A stretch of DNA of 64,000 nt, taken from a virus. The DNA lies in the IMG/VR virus record IMGVR_UViG_3300009514_000005, positions 32,001-96,000 of that record; one strand, 5' to 3'. The notes beneath the pieces are model-generated. The model did not search any database, was not told the DNA's origin, and worked only from the letters and a program-made list of their open reading frames with translations. The translations under genes and the position numbers were made by a program. Below are positions 5,524-21,654 of the stretch, in pieces; position 1 is the stretch's first letter, and the number at the start of each line of letters is the position of its first letter.

Positions 5524-6258
5524 CTAGAAGGGAATATCGTCTTCAGTAAAACTAGGTGGCTGATTATTCGGATCAGTCACATGGTTACTGGCACCTTTAT
5601 CCACATTTTCAGTTGTTCCGCCAAATGGATCCTGATTAAATTCGTCTCGGCCAGAAGCATACTGATCACCACCATTGGCGGAATACTTCATAATAGAAGA
5701 AATTCTATCAGGACTTAACGGCTCCATAACGGATACAAAATCATATGGCTTTCTTGCAAATTCATTAAGCTTATCTAACGGAATAGAATCAATGTCGGTC
5801 TCGCCAACAACCTCAAAATCATTTCCAGAAGAAGGAGACTTCTTCCCGTCTCTCGTAATCTTAACCTTCTTGCCGACCAAGGATCCTCCGGCACTCTTTC
5901 TTCTTCTGTCAAGAGTATCAATACCATCACCCTTAATACCTATAGCTCTTTTAGAAAAAAACCTCTTGGTTCCCTGCTTGTCTACATAAGGAGTTAAATC
6001 TAAAATAGTGTAATACTCAGCATATGAAGAATATGATCCAGAGAAAATAACTGAGTTTTCTTCTGACTCAGTAAAGTTTTTAAACCTACCACCAACTTTT
6101 GCTAAATATTCTTTAATCCCAAACTGAGCATCATCAAGAAATAAAACTGTTCTCGACTCCCCAGGCTTCAAAAAGAATCTAAACAAATCATGTGAATGCA
6201 TTTTATTTTTACGAAAATCCTCACGATTATTATCACCAGGCTTTGAATACCAACTCAT
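5524..6258 (-). CDS. Phage single-stranded DNA-binding protein
   Basis: Aromatic-rich OB-like N-terminus, low-complexity linker, acidic C-terminal tail ending EDDIPF, located in replication cluster. Confidence 0.7.
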   Translation of the reverse strand: MSWYSKPGDNNREDFRKNKMHSHDLFRFFLKPGESRTVLFLDDAQFGIKEYLAKVGGRFKNFTESEENSVIFSGSYSSYAEYYTILDLTPYVDKQGTKRFFSKRAIGIKGDGIDTLDRRRKSAGGSLVGKKVKITRDGKKSPSSGNDFEVVGETDIDSIPLDKLNEFARKPYDFVSVMEPLSPDRISSIMKYSANGGDQYASGRDEFNQDPFGGTTENVDKGASNHVTDPNNQPPSFTEDDIPF

Positions 6259-6340
6259 CTTAATCTCCTTATACTGTCATCAAGTGACGTTTACATTTTG
6301 TCTATCAAGATAATCACACGGGAGATAAGTTGGGAAGAAA

Positions 6341-6637
6341 TTATTTTAAGTCTTCTGTTTTAATATCTGACTTATATTTATTGTCACCGTAAAGACTTCT
6401 CGCCTCTTGAACATCAGGACTAATATCTTTATCCATAATGAATTTACGCAGTACGTCTGTAGTGACCTGAACCATGACATGCCCTTTCATAGCGCGGTTA
6501 ATGATCATTTGGTCTGGCTCTAGTTTTACCATTGACTCATCACGACTTAAGGCAAATAAAGCACCAGCAACCCCAACTGCAATACCAAAAATAAAACCTA
6601 TAACGGAAATCAATATCAAATAACTCTGAGAAATCAT
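6341..6637 (-). CDS. Small membrane-anchored protein
   Basis: N-terminal hydrophobic helix (ILISVIGFIFGIAVGVAGALFAL), overlaps the GT stop. Confidence 0.6.
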   Translation of the reverse strand: MISQSYLILISVIGFIFGIAVGVAGALFALSRDESMVKLEPDQMIINRAMKGHVMVQVTTDVLRKFIMDKDISPDVQEARSLYGDNKYKSDIKTEDLK

Positions 6638-8382
6638 GTCATCACCTCGCTGGCCGCTCTTACCACTTCGTCTGAAGTAATATCAGACAAGCATTGCATT
6701 GTCCCAATTTTGCATCCAACAAAAGTTACCGGAGGCTTTTCTTCGTGAAGGCAAAACCTGCATTCAACCTTCGGAACCAAAGCGATTGTCTTGGCCTGCC
6801 TATGGGAAACCCTATACTCTGGACTGGCAACAGTAAATAAACCAACAACAGGAATACTGGTGGTCATGGCCACATGAAAAAGACCCGAATCCATTCCAAT
6901 AAAAACGTTAGCTCTTTGCATTAATTCTCTAATTTCGTGTATGGAAAGATTGTTTACAAGATTCAATGTATTCTTAAATAGGTCGGCCACAAAATCTCCA
7001 CCCTTTCCAACAACAACAACTTTGTTCCCAGCACTAGCAAGTGACCTAGTTACGGCCATCCAGTTTTGTCTGGACCACGTTCTTGTTGGCCAAGACTGAG
7101 CCATATGAACAATAACTATCTTATCTTTGTTTAAATCAATGCCAGAAATTTTCCCTTTTAAAAGCTGATAATCATTTTCATCAGAGAACAATTCTGGAGC
7201 CGGATCAAAATCTAGACCACCAAATACAGCATTGGCATAAGCTTCTGCGATATGCATCTTTGGGCTTCTCTCGTAAACCTGATCCAAATCATAAATCACA
7301 TTAGATGGAATCTGATCTTTTCTAGAGACAACATTTGCAACATTAGGATTACCTTTAAAAATATTTTTAGACCCGGTAGACACCCAAATGTCTTTGTCTG
7401 GATGCCTTCTTTTTAATTCGCTAATAATTCCAGTAGTAAGCAAAACATCACCAAGGGCTCCGGTTCTTACCACTCCGATTATTTTTTTATCAAAATCATT
7501 TTCCTTAAAAGATTTCTTTCCAGATCCATCAAAAACCATTCTCTCTGATCCCTTTGGTTTAACGCTGACAGAATTAAGCAACTCAAGATTTGCCTCATTA
7601 ACGAAGCCATCAAGTTCTGTCATGTTTAAATTGGCAACTAGATTGCTAAATTTCTTAGCCGTGTTCATCTCCTTTATTAGCCAACTGCGACCTTTAACTA
7701 TTTTTGTCTGGACAGTGTTTCCCCTAGTGCCGCCTTCTTCATGTATAGCCTTAACGTCTGAAGAATAATAAACCCTCCATCCATTCCTCCACGCTCTAAT
7801 GCAATATTCCGTATCTTCACAGGAAAGAAAATAGTCCTCATTCAACATTCCGATATCATCAATCATTGATTTTCTAATCGCAAACAATGCCCCCGTCACC
7901 CCAATTAGATAAGACGGCTTAAGAATTACCGGAGAATATGCTGGAGGCTTATGCCATCCTCTATGAGTAAAGTTTGTGCTGACCCGCTCTATACCACCAT
8001 GCTGAACGCTTCCATCTGGATACAAAAGAAGACCACCTACAATGCCAATCTTTTGATGGACATTAAATGCCTCTTCCAAATACTGCACGACTGGCTGAAT
8101 GAATTTAATATCATTATTAACCAGCACAACGATGTCTCCTTTTGCTTGAGCAATCCCCTTGTTAACCGTCTTAGCAAACCCTGAATTGATAACATTGAAA
8201 TCAAAAACATAGCCTCTGGAATGACAAGCATTTCTAAGCTGACTTCTTATACTCTCGTCACTACCATCATCAACAACAATAACTTCATGATCTACGCCAT
8301 TGTGCTCTTCAAAAGTTCCAAGACAATGAGACATAGTCATATTCAAATGATTAACTGTTGGAACTATAAATGAAAATTTCAT
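6634..8382 (-). CDS. Bifunctional glycosyltransferase, GT2 N-terminus plus GT9 (heptosyltransferase-like) C-terminus
   Basis: FSFIVPTVN, VVDDGS, LVNNDI, SCEDTEYCIRA (GT2), VRTGALGDVLL and FIGMDSGLFHVA (GT9). Confidence 0.9.
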   Translation of the reverse strand: MKFSFIVPTVNHLNMTMSHCLGTFEEHNGVDHEVIVVDDGSDESIRSQLRNACHSRGYVFDFNVINSGFAKTVNKGIAQAKGDIVVLVNNDIKFIQPVVQYLEEAFNVHQKIGIVGGLLLYPDGSVQHGGIERVSTNFTHRGWHKPPAYSPVILKPSYLIGVTGALFAIRKSMIDDIGMLNEDYFLSCEDTEYCIRAWRNGWRVYYSSDVKAIHEEGGTRGNTVQTKIVKGRSWLIKEMNTAKKFSNLVANLNMTELDGFVNEANLELLNSVSVKPKGSERMVFDGSGKKSFKENDFDKKIIGVVRTGALGDVLLTTGIISELKRRHPDKDIWVSTGSKNIFKGNPNVANVVSRKDQIPSNVIYDLDQVYERSPKMHIAEAYANAVFGGLDFDPAPELFSDENDYQLLKGKISGIDLNKDKIVIVHMAQSWPTRTWSRQNWMAVTRSLASAGNKVVVVGKGGDFVADLFKNTLNLVNNLSIHEIRELMQRANVFIGMDSGLFHVAMTTSIPVVGLFTVASPEYRVSHRQAKTIALVPKVECRFCLHEEKPPVTFVGCKIGTMQCLSDITSDEVVRAASEVMT

Positions 8383-9596
8383 GGGTTAACTCCACATTTA
8401 AAGAAACGATCCCAATCATGGGCAACTTTTAGTATTGAATAATTTTCTTCCAAAAATTTTCTGTTGGAATCTAGCCTTTCCATCTTCTCTTCATCAGGAC
8501 AGTTGATGGCATACCGAAGCTTACTATTCCAATCCCAGTCTAAGTTCTGGGCCTCATACCCCCTATTGATAGCGTCGCTATAAGTAACAGACCTTGAAGC
8601 AACAGGTAAAATGTTGAGAGCATTATATTCAATTACTTTTAAACAACTTTTAGCCCAATTAAACGGAAGATCAACAACCGGAGCAATCCCGATATCTCCC
8701 TCTCGAAATATAGCTTTATAAAGAGAAAAATATTGAGCCATTGGAACTAATGAAAAACAAAACAATCTATCTACGGGAATTATTTCAAAAAATGATCTAT
8801 GGATATATCCAACGAATCCAAAGATTACGTCTTCTTCCTGATTAACAATTCTTTTAATAGCTGGGATCACAATCTCTAAATCTTTTTCATGAGTTGGAGA
8901 CCCACCCCATCCGATAAATTTCTTACCCTTTCTGGCTTCTAAAAATTCAGCAGAAGGAATCCTGTCTGTTTCTGGATTTTGATGTGTATATCTTTTGCCC
9001 CTCTTCATTACCACGAAATCATTAGCAGGAGGAGTCACATCGATAAGCTCAATATCCAAGGCGTTTTTAATAACATGAATATTTTTATTATACTCAAGAT
9101 AACTATCACGAAGAGATGGAGTCGTAACGGTTAAAGCATTTGCCGTTGTTAACATTTCCTTAATAATATCTTTTCTTGGCTTGTAATATTGATATCCGGT
9201 GTTCCATTCTGGCACCTTAATGTATTCGTCATCGCTTTCCATCACGACTGGCTTTTTAACGTCTTCCTTGATCATCTTCATCATCCTAAGATGATCTAAA
9301 CTAGTGGGCCTTTGAAACACAATCACATCGGCCCACTCGATAAGATCCATTACTTTGTTCTGCCATTCGGAAATATTTTCAGAAAATGGTTTTTTGCATC
9401 CTACGCATTTCCATTCTCCTTCTTCAAAAAAAGTTCTCTCCTGAATGCCCTTGTCTCGGCATCCATCACAAAGAGCAACCTGTTCTAAAAGCTCTTCTCT
9501 TACTTCATTACCAAGCTCTACAATATGTGGTGTTGGGATTAATACCCGGATCCAATAACAAGAGTCTCTTTTCTTAACGAGATAACCAATTTTCAT
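8379..9596 (-). CDS. GT-B (GT4-like) glycosyltransferase with CxxC...CxxC insert
   Basis: YWIRVLIP, DVIVFQRP, ESDD, VTTPSL, IGWGGSPTHEKDL, IGIAPV...FNWAKSCLKVIEY. Insert CDGC...CVGC. Confidence 0.8.
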   Translation of the reverse strand: MKIGYLVKKRDSCYWIRVLIPTPHIVELGNEVREELLEQVALCDGCRDKGIQERTFFEEGEWKCVGCKKPFSENISEWQNKVMDLIEWADVIVFQRPTSLDHLRMMKMIKEDVKKPVVMESDDEYIKVPEWNTGYQYYKPRKDIIKEMLTTANALTVTTPSLRDSYLEYNKNIHVIKNALDIELIDVTPPANDFVVMKRGKRYTHQNPETDRIPSAEFLEARKGKKFIGWGGSPTHEKDLEIVIPAIKRIVNQEEDVIFGFVGYIHRSFFEIIPVDRLFCFSLVPMAQYFSLYKAIFREGDIGIAPVVDLPFNWAKSCLKVIEYNALNILPVASRSVTYSDAINRGYEAQNLDWDWNSKLRYAINCPDEEKMERLDSNRKFLEENYSILKVAHDWDRFFKCGVNP

Positions 9597-14488: not shown

Positions 14489-15376
14489 TTAATATTTACT
14501 CATTACGCAATGACCATGAGACATCTTATACTCTTTAAGCTCCTCATCAGTCATATAACCATATTTAGCAACCGCTTCATTAAGTTTTTCTGGCAAAAAT
14601 TTACGACCCCAAACTCCAAGGTTTTTATTTCCCTTATCCTCATTGGCTTTTAATTTGTTTTCTTCTATTCGAACCCAATCTTGATAGTCTTCCGGATGAA
14701 ACCTATAGAGCCAAAGTAATTCAATCTCGTTCATAAATGGACAAAGAATACAATTTGATGGAACCGGAACTTGGTTACCAGTTGAAGAAATATATTCCTG
14801 GCATCCTTTTCTGTCTAAACCAAGATCCACCAGTGGATAAATATGATTAATGGATTTTTTTCTCCACTTCATGGAATCCTTAGATGGATCTGCCATTCTT
14901 TTTTCTTCTCCAGAGGCAATACCAATCATCATTTTAATTTTTCCATACCGCTCTGCAAATCGAAGAAAGGCTTTCTTTCTTCCTTTGTCAACTCCATATT
15001 TCTTATGAAGCCAATCCTCTAAAAATTTATAGATAGGTTGAATCTTAAGTTTATCAGTGCAGGTTTTAGGGAAAGCTTTGGATCCAACAGTATTTTTAAG
15101 ATTATAAAAACCTCTCAACGACTGCCAAGAATCATAATGATATCCCATGTCACTGGTAAGGTGAACAAACTCAATTTTGTTTTTACCGCAAAATTTTTTA
15201 ATATTTTCAACATGACTATAAGTGTCCCGATGTTCATCACCAGTATCAGACATAATTACCAAAAAATCATTTGGAGCATATTTAGATCGGAACCCCTGAT
15301 CGTAAACATATTTGTAAAGGAGAGTAGTTGAATCCTGCCCTCCTCCAAATGATAAAATCGTTAACTGATCACTCAT
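14489..15376 (-). CDS. PAPS-reductase-like / PP-loop adenine nucleotide alpha-hydrolase family protein
   Basis: ILSFGGGQDST PP-loop, SDTGDEH, CTDKLKIQP, YPLVDLGLDRKGC, SNCILCPF. Confidence 0.75.
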   Translation of the reverse strand: MSDQLTILSFGGGQDSTTLLYKYVYDQGFRSKYAPNDFLVIMSDTGDEHRDTYSHVENIKKFCGKNKIEFVHLTSDMGYHYDSWQSLRGFYNLKNTVGSKAFPKTCTDKLKIQPIYKFLEDWLHKKYGVDKGRKKAFLRFAERYGKIKMMIGIASGEEKRMADPSKDSMKWRKKSINHIYPLVDLGLDRKGCQEYISSTGNQVPVPSNCILCPFMNEIELLWLYRFHPEDYQDWVRIEENKLKANEDKGNKNLGVWGRKFLPEKLNEAVAKYGYMTDEELKEYKMSHGHCVMSKY

Positions 15377-17092: not shown

Positions 17093-17122
17093 AAATAGAA
17101 AGGCTAATGGTATGATTTGGAT

Positions 17123-17314
17123 ATGAAGCTCTTTGTAAAAACCATCTCCTGGCGATTTATAGCTATGTCTACAACCGGCTTGATCTCTTACGTTCTCACG
17201 GGTTCAATTGAGATAGCGACTAGTATCATGAGCGTTGAAGTGGTGATAAAAAGTCTTTTATATTATGCTCACGAAAAGATATGGATTAAATACGGAGGAT
17301 CCCATGAAAAATAG
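17123..17314 (+). CDS. DUF2061-family small membrane protein
   Basis: KTISWRFIA...SYVLTG.I.IA.SI...EV..K..LYYAHEKIW signature. Confidence 0.85.
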   Translation: MKLFVKTISWRFIAMSTTGLISYVLTGSIEIATSIMSVEVVIKSLLYYAHEKIWIKYGGSHEK

Positions 17315-18227
17315 AGCAATCTGGCTTACCGGCCTCCCGTGTGCGGGGAAAACCACTATAGCTCAAGAACTTGTAAAACTCATCCCAAACTCCACCATTC
17401 TCGATGGAGACATAATTCGATCAGGGCCCCTAGGCCAAGGGGTAGGGTTTTCCAAAGAAGACAGAGAAGCCCATATTAAGCGAATGGGGCATATAGCAAA
17501 AATTCTCTTAGACTCTGGGATAACCCCAATCTGTTCCTTCGTTTCTCCGTCAAGAGAAACCAGGGAAGAGATTAAAGAGTTCATAGGTAAAGATCGGTTC
17601 TTTGAGATTTTCATAGATCCTCCCTTGGAGGTATGCATCAAAAGAGACGTTAAGGGAATGTATGCTAAAGCCATGCGTGGCGAGATCCAAAATTTTACTG
17701 GAATCGATGCAACTTACGAAAAGCCAACTAACCCAAGCCTAAGAATTGATACCGATAAAATCTCCCTAAAAGACACGGTTAATTTTATTGTAGGCAAACT
17801 TAAAATTTATCCAGAAAGAGCTGCCTTTTTTATTGGCCGATGGAACGGTGCCTTACATTTGGGGCATGAGGAAATTTTCAATCAAGAATTAAGCAAAGGC
17901 AAAAGGATTGTTCTTCTCATTAGAAACGTTAGGCCAGACGAAAAAAATCCTTGGACCGCTAAAGAAGTCAAGGAAATGCTGGACTATAGATACAAAGATA
18001 ATGACAGTGTAAGCACTATGATTGTTCCAGATCTTGAGAGTGTTAACTACGGTAGAGGCGTTGGATATGAAGTAAAAGAGATAAAGGTTTCAGGAAAGAT
18101 AGCCGGGATCAGTGGAACAAAATGCAGAGAAATGATTCAAGACAATAACCCTGAATGGAAAAAACTAGTATCTCATAATGTTATTGAATTTTTAGAGCTG
18201 AAATATAGCAAAGAAAATAAAAAATAA
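17304..18227 (+). CDS. cysC: Adenylyl-sulfate (APS) kinase fused to a HIGH-type nucleotidyltransferase domain
   Basis: IWLTGLPCAGKTT, LDGD, GFSKEDR, SFVSP, KRDVKGMYAKA...NFTGID. C-terminal FIGRWNGALHLGH...NPWT...ISGTKCR. Start refined to 17304 (GGAGG SD). Confidence 0.9.
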   Translation: MKNRAIWLTGLPCAGKTTIAQELVKLIPNSTILDGDIIRSGPLGQGVGFSKEDREAHIKRMGHIAKILLDSGITPICSFVSPSRETREEIKEFIGKDRFFEIFIDPPLEVCIKRDVKGMYAKAMRGEIQNFTGIDATYEKPTNPSLRIDTDKISLKDTVNFIVGKLKIYPERAAFFIGRWNGALHLGHEEIFNQELSKGKRIVLLIRNVRPDEKNPWTAKEVKEMLDYRYKDNDSVSTMIVPDLESVNYGRGVGYEVKEIKVSGKIAGISGTKCREMIQDNNPEWKKLVSHNVIEFLELKYSKENKK

Positions 18228-18257
18228 CTTAGCCCGAAATGCGGTTAGAATAGAACC

Positions 18258-18905
18258 ATGGAAAAAACAATCATAGTGATAGGGCAAGCCAGAAGTGGAA
18301 CATCCATGGCCGGAGGATTCCTGCAAACACTTGGTGTTCAGATGAGCGGGGCTGATAACAAATCACCTCAAAACCCAAAAGGGAGCTTTGAGGATCCGAA
18401 GTTCATAGGGATCACAACAAAAGTAACATCAGCCAAAAAAGCAAACACCCCTATAGAGGATATAAAAAAAGAATTCGAGCCTCTTTTTATTCAAAATATT
18501 AACGAAAAAAATCAACTCCATGGCTTATGGGGATTCAAAAGCGCCCTTAGCCATGAGTCTTTAGAGTTTATTATTCCTAACATTAGAAACCCTCATTTCG
18601 TTGTGACCTTTAGGAATGTTTACAGAAACGCAATGTCCTGGAAAATCCATGTAAAAGAAAGATACAAAACGGAAGTTACGATTCACCAAGCTCTTTCTAA
18701 GGTGTCCAAGGGAATTTGGGATGTATGCGAAGCTTTAGAAAAGCATCAAAACATTCCTTGTCATTTTACAACCTACGAAGAAATGAGATTTGATCCAGTA
18801 GGGCAGGGAAGAAGAATGGCCCAATTTATTGGGCTACCATACCCCGAGGAAATTGAGGCCAAGATCAAAGATTTCATCGTTATGGGATATTCAACAGTTA
18901 AATAG
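18258..18905 (+). CDS. PAPS-dependent sulfotransferase
   Basis: PSB loop IVIGQARSGTSM, NPKGSFED, WGFKS, TYEEMRFDP...RRMAQFIGL, directly after cysC. Confidence 0.8.
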   Translation: MEKTIIVIGQARSGTSMAGGFLQTLGVQMSGADNKSPQNPKGSFEDPKFIGITTKVTSAKKANTPIEDIKKEFEPLFIQNINEKNQLHGLWGFKSALSHESLEFIIPNIRNPHFVVTFRNVYRNAMSWKIHVKERYKTEVTIHQALSKVSKGIWDVCEALEKHQNIPCHFTTYEEMRFDPVGQGRRMAQFIGLPYPEEIEAKIKDFIVMGYSTVK

Positions 18906-19428
18906 ACTTCTGAGCACAAAGATAAAATCCATATTTAAACGGAAGGTTTATATCGGATCCATGATCAACCACAACCATACTGTTTCCGTAATAAGCCCTG
19001 AATCTTCTTAAAAATATTTCATGATAATAAGCATGGTAATGCTCAGCGTTCCATAAATTATCATATGCTGAATCATCTGGAAGATAGAGAAAAAGCTTTC
19101 CCCCTGGTTTTATAAAATGAATCCAATCATCCAAGGCTCTAAAGTCATTTGGAACATGCTCAAGACAATGAGACGAGAAGAGACAGTCGTATTGGGCAAC
19201 ATGATCAGGAAGCAATTCGGATAGCCTATAAATATCCTCTATCTGTGGAGGGTTGAAATCTACCCCAGGAAGTTTTCTGCCATCAATCCCAAAAGCTTCA
19301 GGCTTTATTTTGTCAGGACCACAACCAATCTCGATAACTTTCCCGCCACAGTACTGCATAGCGATATGTCTTATCTTTGCCGTCTCGCTTACAAAATCTC
19401 CTTCGCAACATCCCAAACTTTTACCCAT
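18898..19428 (-). CDS. Class I SAM-dependent methyltransferase
   Basis: VIEIGCG, FGID, CLFSSHCLEHV, IKPGGKLFLYLP. Confidence 0.85.
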   Translation of the reverse strand: MGKSLGCCEGDFVSETAKIRHIAMQYCGGKVIEIGCGPDKIKPEAFGIDGRKLPGVDFNPPQIEDIYRLSELLPDHVAQYDCLFSSHCLEHVPNDFRALDDWIHFIKPGGKLFLYLPDDSAYDNLWNAEHYHAYYHEIFLRRFRAYYGNSMVVVDHGSDINLPFKYGFYLCAQKSI

Positions 19429-20048
19429 TAGATCACCTCGTCAACGATTCCTAATTTTTTAGCATCAAGAGCTGTCATATAACTTTCTTTGTTTTCCATC
19501 AACTCTTCAAGTTTTGTTTTGGCAACTTTTTTCCCAAGGCGTTTTTTTTCAACATCACCTATCTCAACGGTTTTCTTATGCCGGATCTCTCTATAAAGAA
19601 TATCGATGATCCTTTTCTTTTCAAGTTTGAGGGAAGCCAGGATCCCGGCGGCCTCGGTCTCATTAGTGCCCATAAGAAGACTGGACTCCCTTGGGCCATG
19701 GAACATAAAGATTGAATCCTTGCTACTTTTTCTCCAATCACCACAAGCAGCAATGGTAGTGGCGGCACTCATACAGTCACCTAAAACATAAGTAATCACA
19801 GTGCCTTCAAATAATTTAAGAGAATTAATAATCGAAATCGCCGAAGCGCAGCAGCCACCATAAGAATTTATGAAAACCGTGACTTCATTTATTCTTTCTT
19901 TTTCTGCTACGTTGTTCCAATAGAAAACTTTACCCTGAACATCCTCAGCCATCTCTTCATTGATTTCACCGAAAATTTTTATGGCACCATTATCTAACTC
20001 AGATTCTAGGACAAAATCTGTTTCCTGAGCCATAAGCCCTCCAATCAA
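19428..20048 (-). CDS. ClpP-like serine protease
   Basis: IFGEI, FINSYGG, CMSAAT (Ser), FMFHGP (His), YMTALDAKKLGIVDEVI. Confidence 0.85.
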   Translation of the reverse strand: MIGGLMAQETDFVLESELDNGAIKIFGEINEEMAEDVQGKVFYWNNVAEKERINEVTVFINSYGGCCASAISIINSLKLFEGTVITYVLGDCMSAATTIAACGDWRKSSKDSIFMFHGPRESSLLMGTNETEAAGILASLKLEKKRIIDILYREIRHKKTVEIGDVEKKRLGKKVAKTKLEELMENKESYMTALDAKKLGIVDEVI

Positions 20049-20494
20049 TTGGAGAGATTTTTCAAAAGACCTACTGCGTTTTTGAATGCCTTCTTCTTTT
20101 CCTTGTCTATAGGCTCAAAGATCATCACAGTGCGATCAACCAGGGCCTCTCCATCGTCCCGTATTTTTATTCTAGCCTGTTTTACGAGACGGTCATTGGA
20201 TAAAATACCGGCCTTTTCTGCGCAGTCATAGGCCATATTCATCAGGTTATCCATGTCGGCCATGCAAACCCTTGTAAAATCAAAGTAAAGTGTGGCCCGG
20301 ATTCTTCCGGTCAAAGGCTCCTTTAGCCCTGACTCAGCGAGTTGCCCCTTCAGAATTTTTATAGCCCCTTCCTCATATTCTCTTTTGGCCTTAGTTTTTC
20401 CTAAAAAATGCTTGCCAGTCTTTTTGTTTTTAAAGATTGGGCGGCCATTTTTTTTAGTGGTGGGTCGAACTGGAATCTCAAATCTATACTTCAT
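20045..20494 (-). CDS. RusA-like Holliday junction resolvase
   Basis: PTTKKN, DMDNLMNMAYDC...GILSNDRLV. Confidence 0.75.
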   Translation of the reverse strand: MKYRFEIPVRPTTKKNGRPIFKNKKTGKHFLGKTKAKREYEEGAIKILKGQLAESGLKEPLTGRIRATLYFDFTRVCMADMDNLMNMAYDCAEKAGILSNDRLVKQARIKIRDDGEALVDRTVMIFEPIDKEKKKAFKNAVGLLKNLSN

Positions 20495-21654
20495 TTTCTC
20501 TCGTATTTTTTCCCGTAAATATAAGCAAAGTCACCAGGTACCATAATATGATCTGGAGTTGCTACCTTTTTTTCTGTATCAATATGAACAACTAAAAAAC
20601 TGTTTGTCCACTTATCTCGACCTTCCACATATTCAGCCCTGGTTTCAGCTATACATCCAACAGTTTGCCACCAAATTTTACCCATCGGAATGTTTGAAGT
20701 TGTGATGAGTTCTGGCCTATGGGTATGACCACTTGCTCCAGAAATACCCATGCTTAAATCTTTGAAGTGAGATACGAGAAAGGTATCATAATAAACCTTA
20801 TAGTTCTCTTTTATCTCTTCATTTATATCTCCGTTTTGAAAAGCAGCTAAATCTAATTTGCAAACTAAATTAATTTCAAATTCATCCAACCCAAAAACAT
20901 CTGATAGAGATAGCCCCATAACATCAGAAAGTATAATTCTTATGTTTGGAGTTTTGTCAGCCAAAAGCTTTAAAAGCCTAAAGCAATGATTCCCAGCTAT
21001 GAGATCAATTTGAGAATCAGGGCAAGCTCTTCTAAGTTCTCCGAAAATATTTTTTTTAACAAAATTAAATCTTCCAACAATATCGTAAGAACGTGGATCA
21101 ATGCTGAACCTAGACGCCTCGTACAAATCATATACGTCACCAGCCATGCAAATAACATCAGGCTGAAGCCTCCTTGCTGTATCTACAAAACAAGAAAGAA
21201 CAAAGCGATCTGCATGTTTGTCATGAAAATCTGAGCCAACAAGAATTGTTTTAAATCTCTTTTTATCTCTATTCTTTTTTACAAATTTTTCATGATATGG
21301 AAGAACCTCTACTTCATAAAAATTTCTGTAGACATCAAGAGAAGCATGTTTTGCTATTTTCCTTTCCAGTGAATGTTGATTGCGAGAAAGCTCTAATCCA
21401 GCCTGCCTTCTAAACTCTAAAAAAGTTCCAAAGAATTGAGACCAAGTAGCATCCGAATAATTTCCATGAATTCTATAAAAATTTCTTGTAATGTGTTTTA
21501 ACGGAAAGGCTTCCTGAACTTTTCTTAAATCATCGATGCAGTCTTCTTCGGTAGCCTTAGAGTTGAATTTCTTTTTTCTCTCAGATAAAAGAGCAAGCTC
21601 AGATTGGTTTTGGCGTTTTTTCTTGGGAGCTTTTTTCGCTTTACCCTTTGCCAT
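20491..21654 (-). CDS. Calcineurin-like metallophosphoesterase with N-terminal helical domain
   Basis: SDFH, AGDVYD, AGNH, SGHTH motifs. Confidence 0.8.
   Translation of the reverse strand: MAKGKAKKAPKKKRQNQSELALLSERKKKFNSKATEEDCIDDLRKVQEAFPLKHITRNFYRIHGNYSDATWSQFFGTFLEFRRQAGLELSRNQHSLERKIAKHASLDVYRNFYEVEVLPYHEKFVKKNRDKKRFKTILVGSDFHDKHADRFVLSCFVDTARRLQPDVICMAGDVYDLYEASRFSIDPRSYDIVGRFNFVKKNIFGELRRACPDSQIDLIAGNHCFRLLKLLADKTPNIRIILSDVMGLSLSDVFGLDEFEINLVCKLDLAAFQNGDINEEIKENYKVYYDTFLVSHFKDLSMGISGASGHTHRPELITTSNIPMGKIWWQTVGCIAETRAEYVEGRDKWTNSFLVVHIDTEKKVATPDHIMVPGDFAYIYGKKYERK

Follow-up and report, generated by a model that had tools for sequence, protein, structure and literature searches.

Gene content of the locus

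The window analysed here is a stretch of 64,000 nucleotides that forms part of a virus record of 134,619 bp in IMG/VR, which is about 90% complete. Genes for a tail sheath, a baseplate wedge, a tape measure protein and a DnaB-like helicase mark the phage as a contractile-tailed myovirus. The helicase shares 42% identity with phages of many hosts, and no tRNA genes were found in the window. Amid minus-strand replication genes lies an island of three genes on the plus strand. These encode a DUF2061 protein, a fusion of an APS kinase (CysC) with a second domain, and a sulfotransferase that is the single copy in the whole record. The second domain of the fusion is an HxGH nucleotidyltransferase domain and is termed NT in the following, the two-domain protein CysC-NT. 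The coordinates are collected in Table 1.

Table 1. Features of the three-gene cassette in window coordinates
Feature	Position	Strand	Basis
DUF2061 small predicted membrane protein, first cassette gene	17123..17314	+	PF09834, E 4.4e-19
Ribosome-binding site GGAGGA, 4 nt 5' of ATG 17304	17294..17299	+	Direct reading
CysC-NT fusion, 307 aa, proposed compact PAPS synthase	17304..18227	+	Identical to database cluster P0001 (307 aa)
APS kinase domain, residues 5-149 (307-aa numbering)	17316..17750	+	PF01583, E 6e-49; TIGR00455, 181.5 bits vs cut-off 138.7
P-loop GLPCAGKT of the APS kinase	~17331-17354	+	Alignment A1
NT domain, 140 aa, candidate new-type ATP sulfurylase	17805..18224	+	AlphaFold2 model, fold search, comparative genomics
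GRWNGALHLGH, first nucleotidyltransferase signature (R179, H185, H188)	17835..17867	+	Direct reading and conservation
R207, family-specific near-invariant arginine (98%)	17922..17924	+	Conservation over 338 domains
YGRGVGY loop (R251 98%, G250, G254, Y255)	18048..18068	+	Reading, conservation, profile alignment
ISGTKCR, second nucleotidyltransferase signature (S270, T272, R275)	18108..18128	+	Direct reading; Sat likewise has ISGTxxR
Sulfotransferase, 215 aa, last cassette gene, presumed PAPS consumer	18258..18905	+	PF13469 3e-9 and PF00685 9.8e-8, both above cut-offs

The DUF2061 reading frame was listed from TTG 17117, with an ATG at 17123, and the gene overlaps that of CysC-NT by 11 bp. The CysC-NT frame was listed as 17265..18227. 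Its true start is most likely the ATG at 17304, because this codon is preceded at 4 nt by GGAGGA and cluster P0001 starts at the same place.

The N-terminal half of the fusion has the kinase motifs conserved (P-loop, DGD, SFVSP and KGMYAKA..G.I.NFTGI; alignment A1). With a TIGR00455 score above the equivalog-domain cut-off it is, by sequence, a genuine APS kinase, and APS is therefore required by the fusion protein. The earlier note on this DNA had pointed out that neither Sat nor CysDN is encoded in the window. This holds for the entire 134,619-bp record, in which no match to PF01747 (Sat) and none to TIGR02039 (CysD) was obtained. Two PAPS-reductase-like ORFs of the virus were considered as CysD and rejected, since TIGR02039 did not match them. 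A CysQ gene was not found in the virus either.

Motifs, model and conservation of the NT domain

A domain of about 140 aa with an HxGH motif had been described C-terminal to CysC, and this description was borne out. The AlphaFold2 model of NT, made from a 79-sequence alignment, has a pLDDT of 94 and a pTM of 0.86. When 1.84 billion representative proteins were searched exhaustively, 689 clusters matched NT at E≤1e-3. In 338 distinct domains G178, R179, H185, G187, H188, R207, N215, P216, P242 and D243 are near-invariant, as are G250, R251, V253, G254, Y255, S270, T272 and R275. The catalytic signatures are conserved to 94-99% across these domains, and the G, R, H, G and H of the first signature to 94-97% each. 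The NT domain is real and not a chance product, because the model is confident, cluster representatives are this numerous and the motifs are near-invariant.

The HxGH motif follows strand 1 and ISxTxxR lies near the C-terminus. By these motifs and by its fold, NT is assigned to the HxGH (HIGH-motif) nucleotidyltransferase superfamily. Its first signature is one residue longer than the GRFQPxHxGH of NMNAT-like relatives.

Relationship to NMNAT, Sat and other nucleotidyltransferases

The earlier note had proposed to compare a predicted structure with Sat and NadM. This comparison was carried out as a VIA-align search of 48,161 PDB representatives, which provides a fold ranking independent of Foldseek. 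The top match was the NMNAT of M. jannaschii (1f9a, MJ0541) with Z 13.5, 128 residues aligned and 26% identity, followed by PPAT (Z 13.1), NadM (Z 12) and bacterial NaMNATs (Z 11). Thermus ATP sulfurylase 1v47 reached Z 9.8 (128 residues aligned, rmsd 2.9). The remaining Sat structures scored Z 6.6-8.4 and cytidylyltransferases Z 6-7. Foldseek against the PDB returned NMNAT and PPAT at modest E-values (1e-4), and Sat was absent among the matches listed.

On the sequence side, a family profile was made from alignment A2 (79 sequences). The CysC columns of this profile cause most of its Sat and PAPSS matches, and only the NMNAT rows and a short ISGT stretch were used. Its match to the sequence of NMNAT has an E-value of 9.5e-21 and is split in two, covering NMNAT residues 5-76 and 110-158. 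Residues 77-109 of 1f9a, about 33 residues that follow strand 3, correspond to just 8 profile positions, with the loop SVNYGRGV in their place. The stretch that is replaced in NT presumably holds the nicotinamide riboside of NMN, as in the NAD complex of the M. thermautotrophicus enzyme. The models for archaeal NMNAT matched over about the first 75 residues only and stayed far below their cut-offs (NF002243, 33.7 bits vs 127; TIGR01527, 24.8 vs 181.2).

Comparison with Sat gave more distant signals. The window protein had no PF01747 match at E≤0.01; two distant NT relatives lie near the cut-off of 24.3 bits (P0177 with 26.0, P0122 with 23.8). An hhalign comparison of the NT profile with a profile of seven genome-derived Sat sequences yielded 87% probability and E 4e-7, pairing HxGH with HxxH and ISxT with ISGT. 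The middle part of this alignment (PD..SV against GRDHAG) is of low confidence and was left out of the assignment of sulfate-binding residues. The Sat motifs QxRNPxHxxH and GRDHAG are absent as such from the window protein; genuine Sat sequences carry TRNxxHxxH and VGRDHAG. NT relatives also gave weak matches to PF01467 and to phrog_395 ('cytidyltransferase').

Judged by sequence and by the predicted structure, NT does not belong to the Sat family and is closest to archaeal NMNAT. It is not a reduced Sat; sequence and fold point to a derivation from the archaeal NMNAT lineage. That the nearest relatives are NMNAT (by E-value and Z-score) and PPAT, and not Sat, counts against reading the domain as a sulfurylase, as do the missing PF01747 match and the missing Sat motifs of the window protein.

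Archaeal or NadM-type NMNAT (1f9a; M. thermautotrophicus 1ej2; TIGR01527, NF002243) has GRxxxxHxGH, ENP(F/W)TA, GYEV, ISxTxIR and a C-terminal W..VP helix in common with NT. The two differ in the family scores and the shortened loop given above. NMNAT furthermore has no counterpart of R207, the aligned stretch being G-S-A-Q without an arginine, and the genomic context of NT is sulfur metabolism, not NAD. CoaD/PPAT (4nah, 1vlh) is similar to NT in size and fold, but has 15% identity and other motifs after strand 3, and NT has no CoA-pathway context.

Sat (PF01747; 1v47, 4dnx, 1j70) shares with NT the superfamily, the fold, ISGTxxR, the fusion to or adjacency of an APS kinase and the position upstream of aprB, and by analogy the proposed reaction would be the same. 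Sat has 350-400 aa, with a catalytic domain of about 200 aa that follows a PUA-like N-domain, whereas NT has about 140 aa, is devoid of a PUA-like N-domain and follows the kinase directly; stand-alone homologues have 112-168 aa. CysDN, a GTP-coupled heterodimer, carries out the same reaction as proposed here with an unrelated fold (PP-loop ATP pyrophosphatase and GTPase), and NT has no GTPase partner. Bifunctional PAPS synthases (human PAPSS1, 1x6v; Aquifex Sat-CysC, 2gks; CysN-CysC) combine the sulfate-activating step and APS kinase in one chain, as would CysC-NT. Both domain orders are found in either case, for the known enzymes in animals versus bacteria and fungi. The known PAPS synthases have about 550-630 aa compared to 307 aa here, and their activating domain is of another family. 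CysC-NT may work like a PAPS synthase, yet stands outside that family, since its second domain is not a member of the Sat family.

Fusions and gene neighbourhoods

Among 205 retrieved proteins, 95 have the order CysC-NT, 17 the reverse order NT-CysC, and 92 are NT without CysC, many of the latter being fragments and a few being fused to another domain. One protein (P0059) is a fusion of NT with DUF2061, the family of the gene upstream in the window. The same two-domain protein is also found in cultured phages. Gp32 of Xylella phage Salvo, annotated 'kinase', has GRYQPWHAGH and YYGRDVGY, and Xanthomonas phages as well as Stenotrophomonas phage DLP_6 encode related proteins.

Cellular loci were collected with an NT-only peptide pattern (12-sequence alignment A3) from 185,579 prokaryotic species, each represented by a single genome, and the best 80 of 109 confirmed loci were analyzed. 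They include Chitinophagaceae, marine Flavobacteriales, Saprospiraceae, Marinimicrobia, Nitrospiraceae and MGIII/Poseidoniales, and furthermore Methanosarcinales, Woesearchaeota, Thaumarchaeota, Gammaproteobacteria and Pelagibacteraceae. NT is a stand-alone gene in most cellular loci. A cysC gene is fused to NT or directly adjoins it on the same strand in 71 of these best 80 loci, and DUF2061 lies within 4 kb in 26 of them, usually as an N-terminal extension of CysC. The cysC-like kinases beside NT in SAR11 and Marinimicrobia are short (135-155 aa) and have only a partial PF01583 match, a point against the sulfurylase reading. A tally of 136 flanking genes from 29 cellular loci had as its commonest Pfam families the sulfotransferases PF19798 (7) and PF13469 (3) and Inositol_P, the family of CysQ-type PAP phosphatases (6), followed by polysaccharide enzymes. 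Sat, CysD and CysN were not among the 25 commonest flanking families. Epimerases, dehydratases and glycosyltransferases are present in many NT loci.

At least 571 viral contigs in IMG/VR encode a relative of NT. Of the best 80 viral loci, 77 have a cysC gene at a distance of up to 4 kb and 65 have it within 300 bp, the latter number including 8 fusions. DUF2061 was found within 4 kb in 66 of the same 80. The top flanking family of the viral loci is again sulfotransferases. A phmmer search detected no homologues of the window sulfotransferase beside other NT genes, because the sulfotransferases at those loci belong to diverse families.

Distribution relative to Sat, CysD and CysH

Thirty genomes that carry NT, among them a closed 4.7-Mb Chitinophagaceae chromosome, were searched for the known sulfate-activating enzymes. 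PF01747 was present in two, both Nitrospiraceae, in which NT lies away from cysC and beside a sulfite reductase-TusA gene. CysD was found in one genome, with a broken copy in one more. Neither Sat nor CysD was detected in 26 of the 30, absences that are soft given that most of these genomes are incomplete MAGs or single-cell assemblies. CysH scored above its cut-off only in the same three genomes that have Sat (two) or CysD (one). About 26 genomes thus have an APS kinase, often together with sulfotransferases and CysQ, without a known route to APS. These genomes lack sulfate assimilation via PAPS, and the module therefore appears to serve sulfation in them.

Five further genomes included one gammaproteobacterium with both Sat and NT. 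Taken over all genomes, Sat and NT occur together in seven: two Nitrospiraceae, the gammaproteobacterium and four Pelagibacteraceae. This imperfect complementarity also counts against the sulfurylase reading.

NT in SAR11 and the link to aprBA

A sample of 61 Pelagibacteraceae genomes was analyzed for NT (E≤1e-18), AprB (PF12139) and Sat. NT was found in 29 and AprB in 24, with 20 genomes having the two together; Sat was found in only 4. In 11 of the 61 genomes, aprB is preceded by NT on the same strand at a distance of 1.1-3.6 kb. In the single fully annotated locus (L097), the gene order is NT (126 aa), a 264-aa protein without Pfam match, AprB (156 aa) and AprA (619 aa), with AprB and AprA confirmed by Pfam. 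The 264-aa protein may be AprM. By analogy with sat-aprMBA operons, NT fills the sat slot in this locus. At another locus (L102), Pfam-confirmed aprB and aprA lie 2.7 kb downstream of a cysC-NT fusion. Other SAR11 genomes have NT adjoining a short cysC-like kinase instead.

APS is the sole metabolite that APS kinase and APS reductase have in common, and ATP sulfurylase links APS to sulfate and ATP. The aprBA position is a second link of NT to APS, independent of cysC. Ca. P. ubique has been described to possess AprBA and to lack sat and cysDNCHIJ (PMC5069961).

Assignment of function and alternative explanations

The reaction that is best supported for NT is the adenylylation of sulfate, because NT is fused to CysC in both orders, almost always adjoins cysC, is found in genomes devoid of Sat and CysDN, takes a position upstream of aprB and has sulfotransferases and CysQ as neighbours. 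The fold in common with Sat, the hhalign match to Sat, the loss of the NMNAT segment after strand 3 and the two distant relatives near the PF01747 cut-off speak for it as well. This support is comparative throughout. We consider CysC-NT quite likely to be a compact bifunctional PAPS synthase with a new, NMNAT-derived ATP sulfurylase. The earlier note had proposed a compact, non-canonical sulfurylase fused to APS kinase. With fusions, neighbours and distribution behind it, this sequence-based proposal stands as probable; its argument by analogy with the RNPxHxxH motif of Sat is not the basis for it.

An NMN/NaMN adenylyltransferase of phage NAD salvage, fused to a kinase by chance as in NadR, would explain why archaeal NMNAT and NadM give the best sequence and fold matches and why HxGH and ISxTxxR are intact in NT. 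Fusions of this kind exist, NadR being an NMNAT joined to a P-loop ribosylnicotinamide kinase. The kinase in CysC-NT, however, scores above the equivalog cut-off for APS kinase and is not a ribosylnicotinamide kinase. The bit scores of NT lie far under the cut-offs of the NMNAT families, and the segment reduced to 8 residues is the one that presumably holds the nicotinamide-binding residues. Genes of NAD metabolism were not seen as context; the neighbours are cysC, DUF2061, sulfotransferases, CysQ and aprBA. The NMNAT-like activity that had been named as an alternative is therefore disfavoured, and we regard it as very unlikely. A nucleotidyltransferase that acts on another small phosphorylated compound (for example a sugar phosphate, glycerol phosphate or phosphopantetheine) in the service of glycan or polysaccharide loci is unlikely as well. 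The size of NT resembles that of TagD-type cytidylyltransferases, PF01467 and phrog_395 match weakly, PPAT is close in fold, and enzymes of glycan synthesis such as epimerases, dehydratases and glycosyltransferases lie in many NT loci. Such an activity would not account for the APS kinase fusion in both orders or for cysC as the direct neighbour in about 90% of loci, and in 26 of 30 genomes nothing would provide the APS kinase with APS. The cytidylyltransferases are furthermore distant in fold, and the SAR11 position upstream of aprB has no glycan genes around it.

Alternatively, NT could act on APS in another way, either as an APS:phosphate adenylyltransferase (ADP sulfurylase) or in an adenylyl transfer that consumes APS or PAPS. 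The cysC and aprBA contexts share APS as a ligand and do not fix the co-substrate, which is compatible with such a reaction. To our knowledge, enzymes with HxGH and ISxTxxR start from a nucleoside triphosphate with PPi as a product, and the ADP sulfurylases known so far are of other folds, so that a reaction of this type would be at odds with the chemistry of the fold. An APS consumer fused to APS kinase would compete with the kinase rather than feed it, and the genomes would still be without an APS source. We hold this possibility to be quite improbable. For a non-catalytic module of regulation or oligomerisation, comparable to the APS-kinase-like allosteric domain of fungal Sat, there is the precedent that fungi have degenerate sulfate-activation domains in regulatory use. 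The strong conservation of the catalytic signatures across 338 domains and the fact that most cellular loci have NT as a separate gene make this explanation extremely unlikely.

Proposed mechanism

As a sulfurylase, NT would have descended from the NMNAT lineage by loss of the pocket that presumably takes up nicotinamide riboside and by gain of the near-invariant R207 and R251. Both are family-specific arginines next to the ATP site. ATP is held by the HxGH and ISGTxxR motifs throughout the superfamily, and by analogy with NMNAT these motifs would do so in NT. The small anion sulfate would take the part that the phosphate of NMN has in NMNAT and attack the alpha-phosphate of ATP to give APS and PPi, with R207, R251 and the glycine-rich YGRGVGY loop as candidate sulfate binders. 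The fused kinase would convert APS to PAPS at once and thereby pull the unfavourable first step forward. In PAPSS, Sat-CysC and CysN-CysC fusions, removal of APS overcomes the unfavourable equilibrium. The phage would in this way produce its sulfate donor itself and use it to sulfate a target by means of the adjacent sulfotransferase. DUF2061 may be a membrane anchor.

Significance

The enzymes known to activate sulfate are of two types, Sat and CysDN. A literature search found no published description of the NT family, Pfam and NCBIfam hold no model for it, and the PHROGs labels for the phage fusion are 'kinase' or 'cytidyltransferase'. Sulfate activation and PAPS synthesis are known functions as such; what would be new is the enzyme family behind them. 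We think it likely that NT represents a third class of ATP sulfurylase, NMNAT-derived and independently evolved in a lineage apart from Sat and CysDN. In SAR11, Marinimicrobia, marine Flavobacteriales, Chitinophagaceae, several archaeal groups and several hundred phages or more, it would be the enzyme that activates sulfate or resolves APS, with a short APS kinase and the DUF2061 membrane protein as partners. Phages would have their own PAPS supply for the sulfation of host or virion molecules.

If this is true, a third and very small type of ATP sulfurylase would change the annotation of sulfur metabolism in abundant ocean lineages. It would explain the APS source of genomes that have APS kinase and sulfotransferases without Sat or CysDN, and would close the gap that follows AprBA in SAR11. 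Many phages would carry a complete three-gene sulfation module. The 307-aa fusion would be the smallest PAPS synthase known and useful for enzymatic PAPS regeneration.

Domain partners and genomic context of the NT domain

No third partner accompanies the module formed by APS kinase (CysC) and the HxGH nucleotidyltransferase (NT) domain more faithfully than DUF2061, a predicted membrane protein of ~52 aa. In Chitinophagaceae (loci L006-L044) DUF2061 is joined to the N-terminus of CysC, and in the protein cluster P0059 it is attached to the NT domain at the C-terminal end. Other NT fusions were also found. Cluster P0114 is an NT-DUF6717 fusion, and the NT proteins of P0058, P0070 and P0149, each of ~375 aa, carry an unannotated N-terminal domain of ~240 aa.

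The same kinase-NT fusion is present in Xylella phage Salvo (L001, NC_042345.1), as gp32 (5989-6735); its annotation is 'kinase', and one of its loops, YYGRDVGY, contains GRD. Upstream of gp32, at a distance of 3.5 kb, the phage has a gene with a cysteine dioxygenase annotation (1792-2487), a hint that it may encode a way to turn the sulfur of cysteine into sulfate.

At four archaeal loci (L070, L071, L072 and L075; Woesearchaeota and Methanosarcinales) a further cysC, this one stand-alone, comes right after an NT-CysC fusion. Directly upstream of the fusion, three of the four (L070-L072) have a gene of 245-292 aa. At the Nitrospiraceae loci L016 and L023, cysC is not beside the NT gene. Near the NT gene of L016, Pfam identified a fusion of a NIR_SIR sulfite reductase with TusA; L023 has an ORF that corresponds to this fusion in size and position. 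Both genomes also have a 580-aa Sat-containing ORF and CysH, and the NT domain may be in paralogous or redundant use there. In Pelagibacteraceae a few Sat genes turned up (L107, L108 and L109), and these have the motif TRNI(C/P)H(V/L/K)GH, in which the usual HxxH takes an HxGH-type form.

Organization of the phage cassette and neighboring genes

The three cassette genes (17117-18905), all on the (+) strand, stand amid a long run of (-) genes. At its start the cassette is divergent from a gene for a UvrD-like helicase (16959); at its end it shares 8 bp with a SAM methyltransferase gene (18898-19428), which is convergent with it. Thus arranged, the cassette looks like an inserted moron-type island.

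Phage genes considered together with the cassette
Feature	Position	Strand	Remark
Glycosyltransferase (phrog_7162)	8379-9596	(-)	early region shared with cassette
ClpP-like protease	19428-20048	(-)	early region shared with cassette
Large metallophosphoesterase	20491-21654	(-)	early region shared with cassette
PAPS-reductase-like PP-loop ORF, first	14489-15376	(-)	phrog_424 match, E 9.6e-33
PAPS-reductase-like PP-loop ORF, second	G000:C1:29810-30469 (locus L003)		just upstream of window

Two of the phage ORFs, with the motif SFGGGQDS, are of the PP-loop type and resemble PAPS reductases. CysD was considered as their identity and rejected for both. They may use the PAPS that the cassette would make, or they may be part of a DNA-modification system. 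The acceptor for the cassette sulfotransferase could be the product of the phrog_7162 glycosyltransferase.
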